Origin: a virus
UHGV virus genome: UHGV-0084128
Strand: one strand, 5' to 3'
Length of the DNA stretch: 10,606 nucleotides
Each line of letters begins with the position of its first letter. The first letter of the stretch is position 1. This document shows, piece after piece, positions 2,693 through 10,606 of this stretch. The position numbers were made by a program, and so were the translations under genes. The notes below the pieces were generated by a model that saw nothing but the letters and a program-made list of their open reading frames with translations, was not told where the DNA came from and made no database searches.

Positions 2693-4825
2693 TCAAACTC
2701 CGGTTGTAATTGGAACCCAGTTATTTTTGCCTATAGCCGTGCAAAGATACTGAAATCCACTCGCCGTGTTAACATACACGGCACCAGGTTTGCCTGATAT
2801 AACCCCATTTGGGGTGCCATTACCTGAAATAAAAATGAAACCATTCTGGAAGGATACACTTTGAGTGTAATCACCTTGTCCTACCTCTCTAGCCATATCT
2901 CTAATGGCGCAGGCCCACGTACCCGCATTAGATATATTAGATATATTATCACCAGACAGCGGCGCAATAGCGATCATTGGGATTGAATTATCCCCACCAT
3001 ACCCCCGAATATTTGATATTTCTCTCTGCACAATTGTATCAGTGAGATCACGAATAAGTGGTACGGTTACTGTATCCTCACATATAAAATTTCTTATACA
3101 ATAGTCATCGACGGCAGCATTAGTTTCTATGTGGATTAAACCTTCTGATGTGGTATTGGATGCCCCACTATATCCACCAGTCCATTGAATACCGTCAAAG
3201 TTTAGATATTTAGCACCGCCAGTTATATATACATTACCGCCACCACCAATAACACGAAGATTTCTTACGTACACGCCAAAGAAACCTAGAACGTAAACTG
3301 CACGAGCGTGAAGCGACATATATTTAGCGTTATTTGCGTTATCAGACGTGCAATCCTCAATCACTGAATTACGTGCTTGTTGATGTTGCCCGGAAGGTAT
3401 TGTCTGTGAGTTTCGATGTTCAATTTGGAAACTGTAAACACAATCTTTTGCATAACAACGAATGAATCTGACACTTCTGGCGGGCATTGTAGTGGAGTGA
3501 CCTTTTTGTTGAAATCCAGTGATAACATTTTCAGCATAACAATCCATTACTGTGACGTTATAACTTCCTTCATCAATTTCAATTCCGTGTTGGTTATCAT
3601 TCCATACTTGAGATGGGTCATCGTTCCATACTCGGCATCTGTTTATAACTATATCGCTGCTGTTATGTGTGGTTATAAGGTCGTCAAGTTGCGTATTTCG
3701 TGCAGACACATCTTCAACCAGAATGTTATAGCTCCCCCCAACAGCATTGTTGTCGATATTACCATCATCAAAATAGTATCCAGCACAAATATCAATTCCG
3801 TGCTGTAGTCCACGCTGAACATACACGCGCTTGATAGAGCTATTCCTTACCGTAGATAGTAGAATGGTAGTACCCTGCGTTGCATCCATCCATGTTTCAG
3901 TTGGGTTTCTCGCCCTGTTGTTAGCATCAACACCCAGGTCTTCAATACTAATATCCGTATCGTAGTTTGTCCGGAATACCTTGTACTCGTATAGTTCATT
4001 CTGGATGCAGTTTTCAGTTATCGGCATCGAAGCAAGGGCAAGGATGGTTGTTTTCAGTTTTCCTGCACCGCGCAATCTAACGTGAGATGGTACTTTCAGT
4101 GCAGAGTTAATCCCGTAAGTACCTTCAGAAAGAATAAGCTCTTTCACCGTTGCCATTTTTGCCTCTTGCAGTGCTTTGTTCAATTTATCATGATAATCCG
4201 TTACTCCATCTGGAACAATTCCGTAATAATCAGCATACACTTTATTGCATATCCTTTTCCAACGCTTTCCACCAGGCGTGACAATTATCATTCCATCATC
4301 ATCTTCTGAAGTATTATCTGTTGAATCATACTCAAAAAAACCGCCACCGATACCAACACCATCACTATGCTCAATAACATTTATTAATTGACTTTCAATT
4401 GTTGGTTCTATTAGACGTAAATCATTAATATTTTTGCATCTCCCTATGTATTTAAAACCATCCGGTCCAATTAATCTCAACTCTAATTGGTCAGGGTTAT
4501 ATTTCAGAATGTTTGGGTAGTAAAATTGTTGCACTCCATACGCATCATAAACAGCCATAGAATGGCCTTGCACGGTTACAAACTTGGCAATCTGTCCGTT
4601 ATATACAGGGTAACCAGCAGCGTTAATGATGATTGGTTGCGATACAGGAACGTGAGAGCCGTCTTCGTTCTCTACATAAACCTGAATCCGGTTTTCAGGA
4701 TTTACAGGGTCAGTGTCAATTTTACCGATATAAATTTTGCCATTGGCTACGGCTTTAAAAGAACGCGCCATAGTGAAGAGTTGCGAAGGCATCGATACGA
4801 TCACATTGGCTGTAATGTCTGTCAT
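2693..4825 (-). CDS. 9: Tailspike protein (710 aa): P22-family head-binding domain plus a distinct receptor-binding/depolymerase domain
   Basis: First ~110 aa ([59 protein letters not shown]…) match the conserved P22/Sf6/HK620 tailspike N-terminal domain; the remainder is Gly/Asn/Ser/Thr-rich as expected for a beta-helix domain; SD GGAG upstream; 710 aa equals the HK620 tailspike length as I recall it. Confidence 0.9.
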
Positions 4826-5828: not shown

Positions 5829-5896
5829 GTTGGTTTTTCTCCACGGATTTACTGACAACCGAAGCCCTGACTGTTCCCGCAGTTGGGGCTTCAACT
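5829..5896 (+). ncRNA. sar: Candidate sar antisense RNA complementary to the ant ribosome-binding region
   Basis: P22 immI encodes a ~68-nt antisense RNA across the arc-ant interval. Here a plausible -10 TATACT (5817-5822) with a weak -35 lies inside the ant 5' end, and a hairpin GAAGCCC…GGGGCTTC (5861-5892) sits at the 3' end. Boundaries are approximate. Confidence 0.45.
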
Positions 5897-6058
5897 TTAC
5901 GCGCCAATGCGCCCTTCCTTCTTAAAGCTTTCCATTACTCTCTGATAAATCTCAGAGTTAACAGACCGACCATTCTCTTCCGCCACCTTGCGGACCAAAT
6001 CCAATACTTCTTTAGGCCACCGCAAATTGAACTGCGGCATCTTGCTCATTCCTTTCAT
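5897..6058 (-). CDS. arc: Arc repressor (53 aa, ribbon-helix-helix)
   Basis: [53 protein letters not shown], near-identical to P22 Arc as I recall it; SD GAGGTG upstream; ORF-track N-terminal extension rejected. Confidence 0.95.
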
Positions 6059-6073
6059 ATTCACCTCACAATA

Positions 6074-6092
6074 TAGGTCCACCGTGGACCTA
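6074..6092. promoter_or_regulatory. Mnt operator (O_mnt)
   Basis: Near-perfect palindrome TAGGTCCACCGTGGACCTA located at the predicted Pant transcription start, as in P22. Confidence 0.8.
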
Positions 6093-6126
6093 TTGAGAAT
6101 ATAGTAGAGTGCTTCTATCATGTCAA
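6093..6126. promoter_or_regulatory. Divergent, overlapping promoters Pant (minus strand) and Pmnt (plus strand)
   Basis: Pant: -35 TTGACA (complement of 6121-6126), 17-nt spacer, -10 TATATT (complement of 6098-6103). Pmnt: -35 TTGAGA (6093-6098), 17-nt spacer, -10 TATCAT (6116-6121). Confidence 0.7.
6101..6121. promoter_or_regulatory. Arc operator (O_arc)
   Basis: ATAGTAGAGTGCTTCTATCAT is the reverse complement of the 21-bp P22 arc operator as I recall it; it lies in the Pant spacer and over the Pmnt -10. Confidence 0.8.
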
Positions 6127-6148
6127 TACACTAACTTGGAGTGATGGC

Positions 6149-6400
6149 ATGGCTAGAGATGATCCGCACTTTAACTTCCGTATGCCTATGGAAGTAAGGG
6201 AGAAATTAAAATTCAGGGCGGAGGCGAATGGGAGATCAATGAACTCCGAGTTGTTACAAATCGTCCAAGATGCTCTATCAAAACCATCGCCTGTGACTGG
6301 ATATCGCGACGATGCAGAACGACTCGCTGATGAGCAGTCAGAGCTTGTTAAGAAGATGGTGTTTGATACGCTGAAGGATTTGTACAAAAAACCCACCTGA
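6149..6400 (+). CDS. mnt: Mnt repressor (83 aa, ribbon-helix-helix)
   Basis: MARDDPHFNFRMPMEVREKLKFRAEANGRSMNSELLQIVQDALSKPSPVTGYRDDAERLADEQSELVKKMVFDTLKDLYKKPT, near-identical to P22 Mnt as I recall it; SD GGAG upstream; divergent from arc-ant. Confidence 0.95.
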   Translation: MARDDPHFNFRMPMEVREKLKFRAEANGRSMNSELLQIVQDALSKPSPVTGYRDDAERLADEQSELVKKMVFDTLKDLYKKPT

Positions 6401-6416
6401 AGGTGGGTCCTATTTA
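6386..6416. terminator. Bidirectional intrinsic terminator shared by convergent mnt and the lipoprotein gene
   Basis: AAAAAA-CCCACC-tgaa-GGTGGG-TCCTATTTATT; the hairpin contains the mnt stop codon; U-runs on both strands. Confidence 0.6.
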
Positions 6417-6836
6417 TTAGTCTTGCTTTGTTGATGGTATAAGAGATGCGTTTGCCTCTTTTGGCTTCAAGGTATACATCCCACCATTAAAAGGATCTAC
6501 AGCAAGCCAACCAATTAACCCACCAAACACAAGGTTTCCACCAATATACCAGCCATTAGCATTGGCTTTGATTGGCAGGGTAACTGGTTCGTACCCATCC
6601 TTTTCCATAGTGATCTGGTAGCTCTTTTTGCCAAAATAACTACCATCTGACTTGGCAAGAGTTACTCCTTGCGGGGTCTTACCTTGCGCAACAATCACGC
6701 CTGATTCGTCTTTTACCTTAAAGCTCGCACCGGAAGGATTGCTGTTCACTTGCACAAGCTGCGTTTCGTCACCAACAATAGTTGCGCACCCAGATAACAA
6801 TATAGCGCCAGCAACGACGCCAATAATCCTCTTCAT
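6417..6836 (-). CDS. Lipoprotein with a PEGA-like domain and a C-terminal Gly-rich hydrophobic segment (139 aa precursor)
   Basis: Signal peptide MKRIIGVVAGAILLSGC with lipobox LSGC; PEGA-like motifs (NPSGASF…GKTP…DGYEP); C-terminal WYIGGNLVFGGLIGWLAVDPFNGG. Start at the second ATG (6836) because it yields a canonical lipoprotein signal. Confidence 0.7.
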   Translation of the reverse strand: MKRIIGVVAGAILLSGCATIVGDETQLVQVNSNPSGASFKVKDESGVIVAQGKTPQGVTLAKSDGSYFGKKSYQITMEKDGYEPVTLPIKANANGWYIGGNLVFGGLIGWLAVDPFNGGMYTLKPKEANASLIPSTKQD

Positions 6837-6953
6837 ATCAATTTCCATATTTAAAAAACCGGAAACATCCTAATGACAAAACATTCAAATGTGAAGTAGG
6901 CAAAAGATGTTTACTTTTTTCATGGTATCCTGCTCAAAACTAAGGAGGTTGGC

Positions 6954-7343
6954 GTGAAGCAATTTCTTACTGCTATGTTCTTATTCATATCTTTTGGGGC
7001 TACAGCAGAGTGCTGGGTCGTTGGAGATATGCGCGGAATAAGCTATTCAGAACGAAATAATTTCCATCCGGAAGAAGATGGTTTTAGTGGAACATTCATC
7101 ATTAAGACAAACGGTGAAGATGCCAGCATCACATATTCTGGGACAGATGCGGGCGGCATGGCTTACAAAGCATTGTCTAAAAACTCCATCATAGGAATCG
7201 GCGCGAATGGCGAAACTCAACGCGTTATCGACTCATGGGTAATACATCCTACTGGAACAGTTTTAATGTCAAAAACCATTTCCGGTTATGGAAATATGGA
7301 TTCAACCAAAGCTTTTGTTGGAAAAGTAAAAAGAAAATGTTAG
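6954..7343 (+). CDS. Secreted or periplasmic protein of unknown function (129 aa precursor)
   Basis: GTG start with strong SD AGGAGG (6943-6948, 5-nt spacing); signal peptide MKQFLTAMFLFISFGATA with A-x-A cleavage site; mature protein has Cys at both ends; convergent with gene 16 and divergent from the lipoprotein gene. Confidence 0.65.
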   Translation: MKQFLTAMFLFISFGATAECWVVGDMRGISYSERNNFHPEEDGFSGTFIIKTNGEDASITYSGTDAGGMAYKALSKNSIIGIGANGETQRVIDSWVIHPTGTVLMSKTISGYGNMDSTKAFVGKVKRKC

Positions 7344-7367
7344 CGATTGAATCCAATTTCCCATACG

Positions 7368-9209
7368 TTACTGCTGTGTTGCCTCAGTAGCAAACAGCGG
7401 TCTGATGGCATTCGCAGCGTTATTTATCGCTCTTTCATAGGCTGGTGTTCCTGCTTTGGTGTTTGCCAAACGAAGAAGCATATTCCTTGCTGCTTTGGAC
7501 TCATACAAGCGCATCATTGCACCAAAACCAGCCTCAAGCCCCATTGATACGCCAAGGGTCGCAGTTGCGCCAATCGTCCTTATCCTGTTGGCTTGCGATT
7601 GCCCCGTCTGAGTTACTACATTTGCGGTGTCTGACCTTGCTGTTTGCTGTAGAACTTCATGAAGAGCATCAAGCTCTTTCATGTGCTTTCCAGAAAAAAT
7701 AGTGTTGTAAATTTCACCGCCTGACTGAGATTTCAGCTTATTAACTTCAGTGATGAACTTGGCTGGAGAGTCCCCGGCCTTTTCCGCTATTTTGCTGACG
7801 TAAGCTGCACGCATAGCATCTTTCCCCTTATCATCCAGTGCGCTCCAGATTCGTTTCACGTCAGATGGTTTTCTGCTTAATACAACGGTATTTATAAGTT
7901 CAGGACTGGCTTCACTGCTTGCCTTGTTGAGCTTGTTGGCAATGTTTTTATTAAGCACCTTATTATAAACGTTTGCATAATCGGAATTTGCTTTAAGGTA
8001 TTTTGCTGCGTCTGATGCACCGAGGTTTTTAGCAACTGCGTTACGAAGGTCTTTTGACATTGCATTCTCTACCATATTGGTAGCTGCTTTTGCCTGGTTG
8101 GGGAAGACCATAGCATCTCCCTGAACATTAGATCTAAATGCTGTTCTGTGCTGACGCAAGAGATCAAACGTAACATCCAAATCAGTTGCAGGGTTTGCTA
8201 ATTCTTCACGTAGGTTACGCAAGGATGTAAGCAGGCTTTGATTGGCAGACGTCCCAAGCCGTTCCTGTCTTGCGATCGCTGTATTCAGAGCATTCATGGT
8301 ATTTGTGGTATCAACTGCGGCATTACCCATTTTATTGGTGACGTCATTGATAACAGCGCCAGCGGCATCCTTCCGCCCCCTTAACGTGGTGGTCAGAGAT
8401 TTCACCACATCATCAGGGTTGTACTCACCAAAACGGTCAAAATAATTGCTTACCAGCTTACTCCGCGTTGCATATTGCTCTGCTCGCTTTGAGCCCGTCC
8501 CGAGCAAAGCCCCCTCGGCATCCTGAGTAAGGCCGCGAGTGAAAGCATTTTTCGGCGGGATAACATCAGATGTCATTGGTGTCACGCCCATCGATTCTGA
8601 TGTGGCAATTTTCTTCGCCACTTCTGGCGCAATATCACCTTTTATAGCCGTTATTCCACGCCCTATTCCCTTTGCTGCTGCGGAAAGAACACCCTGAGCG
8701 GCAAGGTTAACTCCGGCATTTTTAGCTGCATTTTGTGCGAAATCGCCTTTCTGATTTGCGGCCTCTGCCAGCGATCCAATAGCCATGCTTCCTGCCGTTC
8801 CAACTCCTGTAACTAAATACCCACCAATTGTTTCACCGGCTTGTGCGTATGGGTCTGTCGGTTTGTCTACTGGACGATAAACATCATCCAAAACTTTTGG
8901 CCCACCAAGCCCCTGACTGATTGCATTAATCAGACTTGCGCCACCCTGCAATACGTCAAATGGTATGTTTACCAGACCACGACCAGCCTGTTCTGCAATT
9001 TGCCCTGCACTTTGACCACCAGTGAGCCAATCGCCAGCTTGTTGCATCAATGATGGTTCTTCACGTACTGGTGCATTATTGGCCTGATTAACTGTTTGTT
9101 GCTGAACAACCTGACCAGCAAAATAATCATCAATGGCGGCTCCAATATCTTCCGTGCTCGTACCATCAGGGAAGGTAAATGTCTTACCGTTTGCAGTTAC
9201 TTTCATCAT
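7368..9209 (-). CDS. 16: DNA-ejection (injection) protein gp16 (613 aa)
   Basis: N-terminus [23 protein letters not shown]… as I recall for P22 gp16; Ala/Gly/Asn-rich; start codon overlaps the stop of the upstream gene. Confidence 0.8.
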
Positions 9210-10606
9210 TCCACCGTAAATTGAATGCCTGATTTTGAGGTATATGATCCAACCTGATTCCGTGGTTCTCCTGAAGGTGTCGAATCTTGTGCTGGCGCTG
9301 CGTCAGTATTCAATGACATATACCGCTTAACGGCACTCCCCAATGATTCACCTTTTTTAACATCCAACCCCAATATCTGACCGCCATTACGCGATTGTCC
9401 AGGATTGCCATTCGCGCTCATCCACTCAGCTTTAAACTCATTAAACTGCGCGTTTCGTCGCTCAAGGTTTGCCATTGCATCAAGCCATCTTGCGACCGTC
9501 TCAGGGTTATCCATGTCAGTTGGCGCACCCTGCCGAACGATCTCAACGTCTTTATCCGTTGCTGGGCCGGGAGGCAGGAATTTAAGAACCTGACTGTTAA
9601 CAAGGGCATTTTGGCGGATGCGCAAATCACGCAATGTCGTATCGCTTCCGGTAAGTTTTGCGAACATGTTCTGTGCGTTACCGAACAAACCTGTCGTTGG
9701 TTTTTCTGCTCTGAACTGTTGAGCAAGCGCACTCATAGAATTGGCTGAGTTTGATGATGCTGTGGCATTGTTTACAGCCGTCTCGATACCTTTTTCCATG
9801 TTTACTGACAGCTTAGGTGCTTCACTAATCAACTGCTGAGCCTTTTCCTGCGCTTGCTGCATCTTAAACCCGAACTCTTGCTGATCCAGAGCCAAGCGTT
9901 GTGCTGCGATATTGTGCCCAGTCATTGCTGACTGATAGGAAAGGTTTTGCCCTCTCGCCTGAAGTGCTTCACCAGCCTTATTGCTGCGGATTGTCTCTGC
10001 CAGCCTGCCTCGGTCAATTTCACGACCAGCCATCTTATCCTGAACAGCAAACGCCTTTTCTGGTCCAAGCGCACCGAGAGACATAGTAGTCAGCATGTGT
10101 GATAGCTGCTCTGGATTCTGGATACCTGTCTGAATCATCCAGTCAGCATTAGCACCAACGCGATTTAACCTGTCCTTGTTGTCAGTAATGAATTTACTGT
10201 AGGCTTCCGGTCCCTGAGAAAGAGCGACGTTAGCCCTCATGGCTAAATCGCCCATATCGTTGCGTTGCTGATCATTAAGACCAGAAAACGCCTGTTGTGC
10301 CTGTGCAACAAACGCTGGATTTTCCTGGGCAAACTTAAATAGTCCCGACGGATCACCAGAAGCCCATGCATCAGCGTGAACCTTATTGAACGCACTAATC
10401 GCTTTCTGTTGCTGTTCCTGATTGTAAATATCAGCAACTCCAGCCAGACCATGTAACGCGGTCAGACCAACGTTATTTGCACCTGAGCGAGCCAACTCAT
10501 TGTTTTCGCGGATCAGACCAAGCGTTGCGTTAATGTCGCTTGCCTTTGGCGCATTCTCATTTTGCGTACCGATGCCAGCCAGAAAACCACCAGAATTAAT
10601 ACCCTG
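9206..10606 (-). CDS. 20: DNA-ejection protein gp20; 5' end lies beyond the window
   Basis: Reading frame is open from the window edge (…[45 protein letters not shown]…) to TGA at 9206-9208; Ala/Gln-rich; sits immediately upstream of gene 16 as in P22. The ORF-track TTG start at 10495 is not the true start. Confidence 0.75.

Follow-up and report, generated by a model that had tools for sequence, protein, structure and literature searches.

Which genes take the place of sieA in P22-like phages is the question raised by positions 6417–7367 of the UHGV virus genome UHGV-0084128, from which a stretch of 10,606 nt (the window) was analysed. The window represents the late-operon end of a temperate phage of the P22-like type (Lederbergvirus). 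P22 carries the superinfection-exclusion gene sieA at this place, and SieA is found in just 22 of 66 P22-like phages (PMC10883804). Here, the interval between gene 16 and mnt holds two genes that diverge from an AT-rich intergenic region of 117 bp (6837–6953, 33% G+C). The minus-strand gene (6417–6836, ATG at 6836) encodes a predicted outer-membrane lipoprotein of 139 amino acids (aa), and the plus-strand gene (6954–7343, GTG at 6954) encodes a predicted exported protein of 129 aa, which belongs to the family of the Hex protein of phage 434. Such a divergent arrangement in a "sieA slot" had been described in the first-pass annotation of the window, and both open reading frames (ORFs), the lipobox, the signal peptide, the spacer and the position of sieA in P22 were confirmed. 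The interpretation developed below has about an even chance of being right: the two genes would be separate accessory-gene cassettes, the Hex-like protein acting in the periplasm against superinfecting phages and the lipoprotein altering the cell envelope, rather than one two-gene system.

The plus-strand gene starts 5 nt after the motif AAGGAGG, and its product matches PHROG 2651 with E=2.9e-61, the same family that is matched by 434 Hex (1.4e-58) and by Sf6 gp38 (6.7e-59). In BLASTP, the window protein and 434 Hex align over their full length with 27% identity (E=3e-12). In a tblastn search of phage genomes, near-identical copies of the gene were found in the Salmonella phages Emek and ST-35, and full-length relatives at 27% identity were located directly downstream of cI in 434, lambda imm434, Sf6 (gene 38), HK446, HK633 and Sf101. 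These alignments place the gene solidly in a divergent subfamily of the 434 Hex/Sf6 gp38 family. A profile search with the family yielded 115 clusters, almost all from Enterobacterales and all without names. The close alleles of the window gene have a synonymous divergence (dS) of about 0.01 and are too alike for an estimate of selection. The ST-35 copy contains a 1-nt deletion in its terminal A-run (3675–3720 of the extracted locus), which converts KRKC to ENVSD and removes the conserved C-terminal Cys; this is either a sequencing error or an inactivated allele.

The Hex-like protein has the features of an exported protein. Residues 1–18 (6954–7007, plus strand) form a predicted signal peptide, which ends at the junction of ATA and ECW with cleavage before Glu19, leaving a mature protein of 111 aa and about 12 kDa. 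A signal peptide was present in all 54 aligned members of the family, ending one residue before an invariant Cys-Trp (Cys20-Trp21 in the window), and the C-terminal Cys (C129 in the window) is kept in at least 90% of these members. The cysteine pattern, combined with the signal peptide, is typical of a periplasmic protein oxidised by DsbA, as judged from sequence. In the RefSeq (PGAP) record of the identical gene in E. coli A35 (9876–10244 of the extracted locus), the start is set at the internal Met8, giving 122 aa. This start trims the charged beginning of the signal peptide (window 6954–6975), and the export signal may be missed when signal peptides are called automatically from database entries. 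The AlphaFold2 model of the protein is a small eight-stranded β-barrel with a predicted local distance difference test score of 90.9. No Pfam or NCBIfam model, including those of the MliC/PliC lysozyme inhibitors and the lipocalins, matched any of the 54 family members at E<=0.1. Likewise, a Foldseek search of BFVD gave no match at E<=0.001, and a sequence search of the PDB returned nothing informative.

The link of this gene to sieA lies in the nucleotides that precede its start codon. A block common with the P22 region upstream of sieA extends over 6907–6956 (plus strand) and contains a 33-bp leader of the sieA type (6924–6956, plus strand; GGTATCCTGCTCAAAACTAAGGAGGTTGGCGTG) with its Shine-Dalgarno sequence and GTG start. 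The leader recurs, with one or two substitutions, in front of P22 sieA, the Hex-like genes of Emek and ST-35, the hkcB-like gene 14 of epsilon34, and a 109-aa hkcB-like variant. In P22, the block lies immediately behind the annotated sieA promoter and has the sieA start codon as its last three nucleotides, and epsilon34 has the same intergenic region as the window up to the GTG. Between ST-35 and P22, no mismatch occurs from about 95 bp upstream, including the annotated sieA promoter, to the start codon, after which the Hex-like ORF begins in ST-35. Because the same leader and GTG stand before unrelated ORFs, the comparison indicates that the point at which these ORFs have been swapped is precisely the sieA start codon, with the leader in common. 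For the plus-strand gene, the notion of a sieA slot is therefore exact to the nucleotide. The 5' junction of the cassettes at the sieA position is sharply conserved (leader plus GTG), whereas at the 3' junction, towards gene 16, P22 and the window phage lack such conservation; the exchange seems to be anchored on the 5' side.

P22 sieA and the window gene thus share position, strand, the 33-bp leader and the GTG, with a gap of 22 bp and 24 bp, respectively, to the end of gene 16 (7368–9209, minus strand), the homologue of the P22 ejection protein gp16, with which the window gene converges. Both products are envelope-located and non-structural, in the case of the window protein by prediction. 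There is no sequence similarity between SieA and the window (best E=8.4, tblastn), and the two proteins differ in build: SieA resides in the inner membrane and has three transmembrane (TM) segments, whereas the Hex-like protein has a cleavable signal peptide and, in the model, a soluble barrel fold. Each of the two window proteins contains one N-terminal hydrophobic segment and has a β-rich model, without the polytopic topology of SieA. A survey of the slot among P22-like phages and prophages, which the first-pass annotation had suggested, revealed several occupants, and all the others are envelope proteins as well: SieA in the inner membrane, the hkcB-like protein with a TM anchor and a coiled coil, and a second lipoprotein.

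434 Hex and Sf6 gp38 resemble the window protein in the signal peptide, the Cys-Trp at the mature N-terminus and the C-terminal Cys, and in each case the gene lies beside a lysogeny repressor gene of a temperate lambdoid or P22-like phage. The neighbourhoods nevertheless differ, with 434 hex located directly after cI in the PRM operon and the window gene located at the sieA position in immI, convergent with gene 16. Among 80 Hex-family loci in IMG/VR, 55 follow cI directly in the same direction and 21 converge with it; the scan pattern covered subtypes other than that of the window, and the 76 of 80 loci linked to cI represent these other subtypes. As summarised in PMC3564112, the name hex stands for heterologous exclusion: P22 is excluded by Salmonella lysogens with imm434, but not by hex mutants of these. 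Transcription from PRM covers cI and hex together (PMC3564112).

For 434 Hex, a cytoplasmic mode of action has been proposed, the inhibition of the RecA-stimulated cleavage of the 434 and P22 repressors (PMC3564112). Transferred to the window, the Hex-like protein would protect C2 or Mnt from such cleavage and stabilise lysogeny. This explanation draws on the 30-fold rise in spontaneous induction upon hex deletion, seen in recA+ cells only, and on the block of 434 and P22 repressor cleavage by a Hex fragment in vitro (PMC3564112). It also fits the location of family members next to repressor genes, either cI or, in the window, mnt. The canonical cleavable signal peptide of all 54 family members and the cysteine pair typical of periplasmic proteins argue against it, and to our knowledge Mnt is not a RecA substrate. 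Moreover, the reported "active fragment" sHex begins at Glu43 in the numbering of the 158-aa protein, which is exactly the predicted signal-peptidase site between ANS and ECW. Exported proteins are frequently lethal on overproduction. Full-length Hex is lethal when overproduced (PMC3564112), which likewise speaks against repressor protection. The published 158-aa ORF of Hex (1929–2405 of the extracted 434 locus) has a 24-residue N-terminal extension that overlaps cI; the family alignment favours a start giving 134 aa, which yields a canonical signal peptide. By these sequence features 434 Hex is probably exported, in conflict with a direct cytoplasmic action on repressor and RecA, and repressor protection appears improbable as the role of the window protein. 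Even less probable is that the Hex-like protein forms an integral eight-stranded barrel of the outer membrane, of the OmpX, Lom or NspA type, instead of a soluble periplasmic one. In the fold comparison, soluble barrels (Cap15, the C-terminal domain of NHBA, avidins) score equally with outer-membrane barrels. Furthermore, the mature protein comprises just 111 aa, four of its predicted strands have six residues and are too short for a membrane, and the C-terminus ends not in an aromatic residue but in the conserved Cys, which would pair with the N-terminal Cys.

The minus-strand gene corresponds to epsilon34 gene 15 and to GALLYPH_14 of prophage Gally in E. coli LF82, and its product is 100% identical to the latter and matches phrog_6823 (PHROG 6823) with E=6e-86 in a profile search. 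An N-terminal hydrophobic segment is followed by the lipobox LSGC at residues 14–17, so that the lipoprotein signal peptide ends in MKRIIGVVAGAILLSG before the Cys (6786–6836, minus strand). Cys17 is invariant in the family alignment, and the Ala at +2 after it predicts sorting to the outer membrane by the Lol rule. Across 49 alleles among 77 copies, the ratio of nonsynonymous to synonymous divergence (dN/dS) is 0.00–0.07 with dS up to 0.34. The gene is under strong purifying selection, and the low ratio together with the PHROG match marks the ORF as a real gene. Structure prediction and fold search indicate a transthyretin/PEGA-like β-sandwich, the core of which is modelled with high confidence. 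The sandwich is followed by a conserved Gly-rich hydrophobic segment (residues 96–115, NGWYIGGN..FGGLIGW..VDP..G.MY), which is of low confidence in the model. Pfam and NCBIfam gave a sub-threshold PEGA match only, and gene 15 of epsilon34 has been reported to match solely bacterial genes without known function (PMC2629481).

The lipoprotein belongs to a large family, with 5,714 representatives at 50% identity in an exhaustive HMMER search (E<=1e-3). Many members of this set have C-terminal extensions; no Pfam name and no annotated domain partner was found in it, except for a single fusion to an OmpA barrel. Neither window protein is an orphan: both fall into phage protein families, and the lipoprotein into a bacterial family of thousands. 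The closer paralogues are inserted in the tail clusters of siphophages and share the orientation of the tail genes in every case. One of them, 68% identical and found in HK97-like E. coli prophages (about 6001–6414 of the extracted loci), has the tail chaperone genes G/T on one side and the tape-measure gene on the other, the position of the exclusion moron gp15 of HK97. This gp15 is no lipoprotein but a small protein of the inner membrane, and the likeness is positional only. The paralogue of Proteus lies immediately upstream of the tape-measure gene, that of Pseudescherichia lies between the I and J homologues, and a more distant relative of 168 aa occurs in an ordinary chromosomal neighbourhood. 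The HK97-like prophages with the paralogue often carry, in addition, a porin gene, which is inserted between the homologues of the tail genes M and L.

Among known phage proteins, the 139-aa protein is comparable to Cor of phi80, N15 and HK022 and to Llp of T5, which are small outer-membrane lipoproteins as well. The genes of Cor and Llp lie amid tail or entry genes, and their expression can accompany that of the late genes. However, the similarity to Cor is limited to the signal peptide (NCBIfam Cor, E=0.19, residues 1–30; PHROG 1119, E=0.0034, residues 1–20), and the mature part of the window lipoprotein, with its PEGA-like sandwich, is about twice the size of Cor or Llp. A spanin or lysis role was considered and rejected, the interval being far from the lysis cassettes and the protein not Rz1-like.

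The lipoprotein gene has its own predicted sigma-70 promoter (TTCACA-17-TAGGAT, 6867–6895, minus strand, consensus scan), of which both hexamers and the spacing are kept in prophage Gally. At its other end, a bidirectional intrinsic terminator marks the boundary with mnt (6391–6408, both strands), which forms a hairpin of -12 kcal/mol on the plus strand; on the minus strand it has -14.5 kcal/mol and a U6 run, and in epsilon34 it is annotated as a terminator. The first-pass annotation had regarded the pair as bounded by a bidirectional terminator. This applies to the mnt side; on the other side, the 24-bp gap to gene 16 contains no terminator-like structure.

Published RNA sequencing of LF82 (PMC9928086, tables S1 and S4) provides expression values for the identical Gally gene, given as log2(FPKM+5), where FPKM denotes fragments per kilobase of transcript per million mapped reads. 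GALLYPH_14 reached 6.2/4.8 in stationary lysogeny broth (LB), 9.8–10.5 in Dulbecco's modified Eagle's medium (DMEM), and, within macrophages, 11.0 at 1 h and 9.4–9.5 at 6 h (PMC9928086). These values correspond to about 900–2,000 FPKM in DMEM and macrophages versus about 20–70 FPKM in stationary LB, while the injection-protein gene beside GALLYPH_14 remained at 3.6–4.1, about 7–13 FPKM, in all conditions (PMC9928086). The transcript level of GALLYPH_14 is 50–200 times that of this neighbouring late gene. Since the adjacent injection gene stays low, transcription of the lipoprotein gene from the prophage does not depend on the late operon, as shown for the identical Gally gene. The same-strand genes downstream of it in LF82 (the tailspike gene and GALLYPH_17, in the region GALLYPH_13–GALLYPH_17) rise with it in DMEM and macrophages, whereas the upstream late genes remain silent, which suggests read-through from the lipoprotein promoter beyond the terminator in Gally (PMC9928086, table S1). 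Gally mnt also rises, by up to 40-fold (PMC9928086, table S1). Taken together, the data show a selected, prophage-transcribed lipoprotein, predicted to reside in the outer membrane, that phages have repeatedly acquired among their entry and tail genes.

The adjacency of the two genes invites the explanation that they form one two-component envelope system, with a shared regulatory region and with the lipoprotein as anchor or partner of the barrel. The genes are divergent, both products carry export signals, and the 1.4-kb arrangement is conserved at 99.6–99.9% in at least 43 complete E. coli genomes; the exact interval occurs, for example, in E. coli O111:H- 11128 and strain A35. Nevertheless, each gene is found without the other. 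In epsilon34, the lipoprotein gene is accompanied by the hkcB-like gene, and in Gally and 720R6 by a second, unrelated lipoprotein gene (lipobox LLAGC); conversely, Emek and ST-35 contain the Hex-like gene with other neighbours and without the lipoprotein gene. Across 75 IMG/VR loci, the gene that diverges from the lipoprotein gene is of at least four types: a Hex-like gene (about 20 loci), the Gally-type lipoprotein gene (17), an hkcB-like gene (12) and the 109-aa hkcB-like variant (about 14), the others being unresolved. Complete E. coli genomes (n=5,426) contain the lipoprotein gene in 124 cases and the Hex-like gene in 147, set against the at least 43 with the full arrangement. Moreover, most Hex-family genes lie beside cI and the lipoprotein paralogues lie in tail clusters, neither with the other. 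Given these various partners and separate occurrences, the two genes assort independently by the sequence evidence and are not an obligate pair, which contradicts the single co-inherited module of the first-pass annotation and makes a two-component system highly improbable.

The same annotation had raised superinfection exclusion as a plausible role; for the Hex-like gene this idea gains support from the homology to 434 Hex and is the best-supported role. In the proposed mechanism, the Hex-like protein would be made in the lysogen, exported by Sec and cut before Glu19, and would probably fold in the periplasm into the modelled eight-stranded barrel, closed by a disulfide. There it would act as a superinfection-exclusion factor, most likely against the ejection proteins or tail tip with which incoming P22-like phages deliver their DNA across the envelope, and would serve as a functional stand-in for SieA. 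SieA itself acts on the function of the ejection proteins (PMC10883804). Considering this together with the homology to Hex, the export signals and the sieA leader next to ejection genes, periplasmic interference with DNA delivery is the most likely role of the Hex-like protein, at a confidence slightly short of even. A mode of this kind has an analogue in Spackle (Sp) of T4, a periplasmic exclusion protein with a signal peptide, which blocks the entry apparatus of superinfecting phage. The comparison with Sp is one of analogy only; Sp is helical, belongs to a lytic phage and targets the gp5 lysozyme. The wider claim, that Hex-family proteins are periplasmic exclusion effectors which can replace SieA ORF-for-ORF with the promoter-leader unchanged and stop P22-like phages in the periplasm by binding the ejection proteins or tail tip, is put forward tentatively and is rather unlikely to hold. 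The lipoprotein, encoded in the direction of the late operon by a gene that has a promoter and a terminator to itself, would alter the outer membrane or its periplasmic face. It might do so by masking a surface component that phages use for entry or, with about the same likelihood, by providing an envelope fitness trait.

Several observations weigh against this interpretation. The fold matches of both proteins are generic, and neither protein matches a defence-system model in PADLOC. The identity to Hex is just 27%, the published mechanism of Hex is cytoplasmic, and the genomic position is different, the window gene lying in the immI region and not after cI in a PRM transcript. In addition, the similarity to P22 begins at 6907 in the window and in epsilon34, which leaves out the -35 half of the P22 sieA promoter, and the consensus scan of the spacer found no plus-strand promoter above threshold. 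For both of these reasons, the Hex-like gene can only be presumed to be expressed in the lysogen. As for the lipoprotein gene, the rise of GALLYPH_14 in DMEM and macrophages may reflect growth phase rather than a specific signal and is as compatible with adaptation to the host as with defence; for LB, the Gally study did not count the gene among the morons (PMC9928086).

Part of this evidence points to lysogenic-conversion fitness genes, in which case the lipoprotein, and possibly the barrel, would aid the host in stress, serum or macrophage survival, like Bor and Lom, and leave superinfecting phages unaffected. The level of the identical Gally gene, at least 16-fold higher in DMEM and macrophages than in stationary LB, is in keeping with such a role, as are the absence of a PADLOC match and the spread of the lipoprotein family across bacteria, with about 5,700 clusters at 50% identity and some members in ordinary chromosomal contexts. 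On the other hand, deletion of the whole Gally prophage left the macrophage survival of LF82 unchanged (PMC9928086). The Hex family is genetically linked to exclusion, as summarised for 434 (PMC3564112), and the start codon of the plus-strand gene coincides in position with that of sieA. The lipoprotein paralogues, for their part, occur in tail clusters, where exclusion genes such as HK97 gp15 are found. A pure fitness role is therefore considered unlikely, while keeping appreciable weight, and periplasmic exclusion is preferred for the Hex-like protein.

The surroundings of the two genes are those of a P22-like immI region. The mnt gene occupies 6149–6400 (plus strand), and gene 20 (Pfam Inj_translocase), gene 16, ant, arc and the tailspike gene (2693–4825) are all on the minus strand of the window, the last with a P22 head-binding domain. 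The sar antisense RNA (5829–5896, plus strand; Rfam RF00262, 95.6 bits) is complete and located between arc and ant, so that the immI circuit of mnt, arc, sar and ant looks intact. This circuit and both accessory genes fall between the homologues of gene 16 and gene 9 (tailspike). The counterpart in P22 consists of orf59a, a terminator, the sieA promoter and sieA, which stops 22 bp from the end of gene 16. The gene 16–gene 9 interval has been published as a hypervariable accessory region, the "ant moron" (PMC2629481), in agreement with the view that the two genes encode exported, non-structural accessory proteins, as predicted here. Its content is not needed for morphogenesis and is different in each of P22, epsilon34, Emek, ST-35, Gally and 720R6, which are otherwise syntenic.

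Elsewhere in the window, an xis-like ORF (1026–1226) and an IntS-type integrase gene (1440–2633) are convergent on the tailspike gene and 60 bp apart from it, and a Lar-like zinc-ribbon ORF is located at 244–456. Integrated E. coli prophages match the window from about 1300, whereas phage N7 matches already from 483. From this difference, the permutation of the window seems to be that of the phage, in which attP is intact, with its position near 1230–1440.

The interval is thus a real but fairly ordinary site of accessory-gene cassettes. The hypervariable "ant moron" and Hex were known already, and both genes have been deposited as hypothetical proteins; the link of a slot occupant to Hex, the ORF-precise exchange behind the sieA leader and the predicted export of the Hex family appear to be new. 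With sieA present in just a third of P22-like phages, the interval names concrete candidates for its substitutes. If Hex-family proteins do replace SieA in the proposed way, the sieA leader would be a point dedicated to the exchange of alternative exclusion cassettes that act on the envelope and are linked to ejection-protein genes. In that case, the published cytoplasmic anti-RecA role of 434 Hex would need re-examination, as the "active fragment" begins exactly at the predicted signal-peptidase site. A phenotype of the phage-borne lipoprotein would be a first entry to the function of a bacterial protein family with thousands of members, which is unstudied to date.

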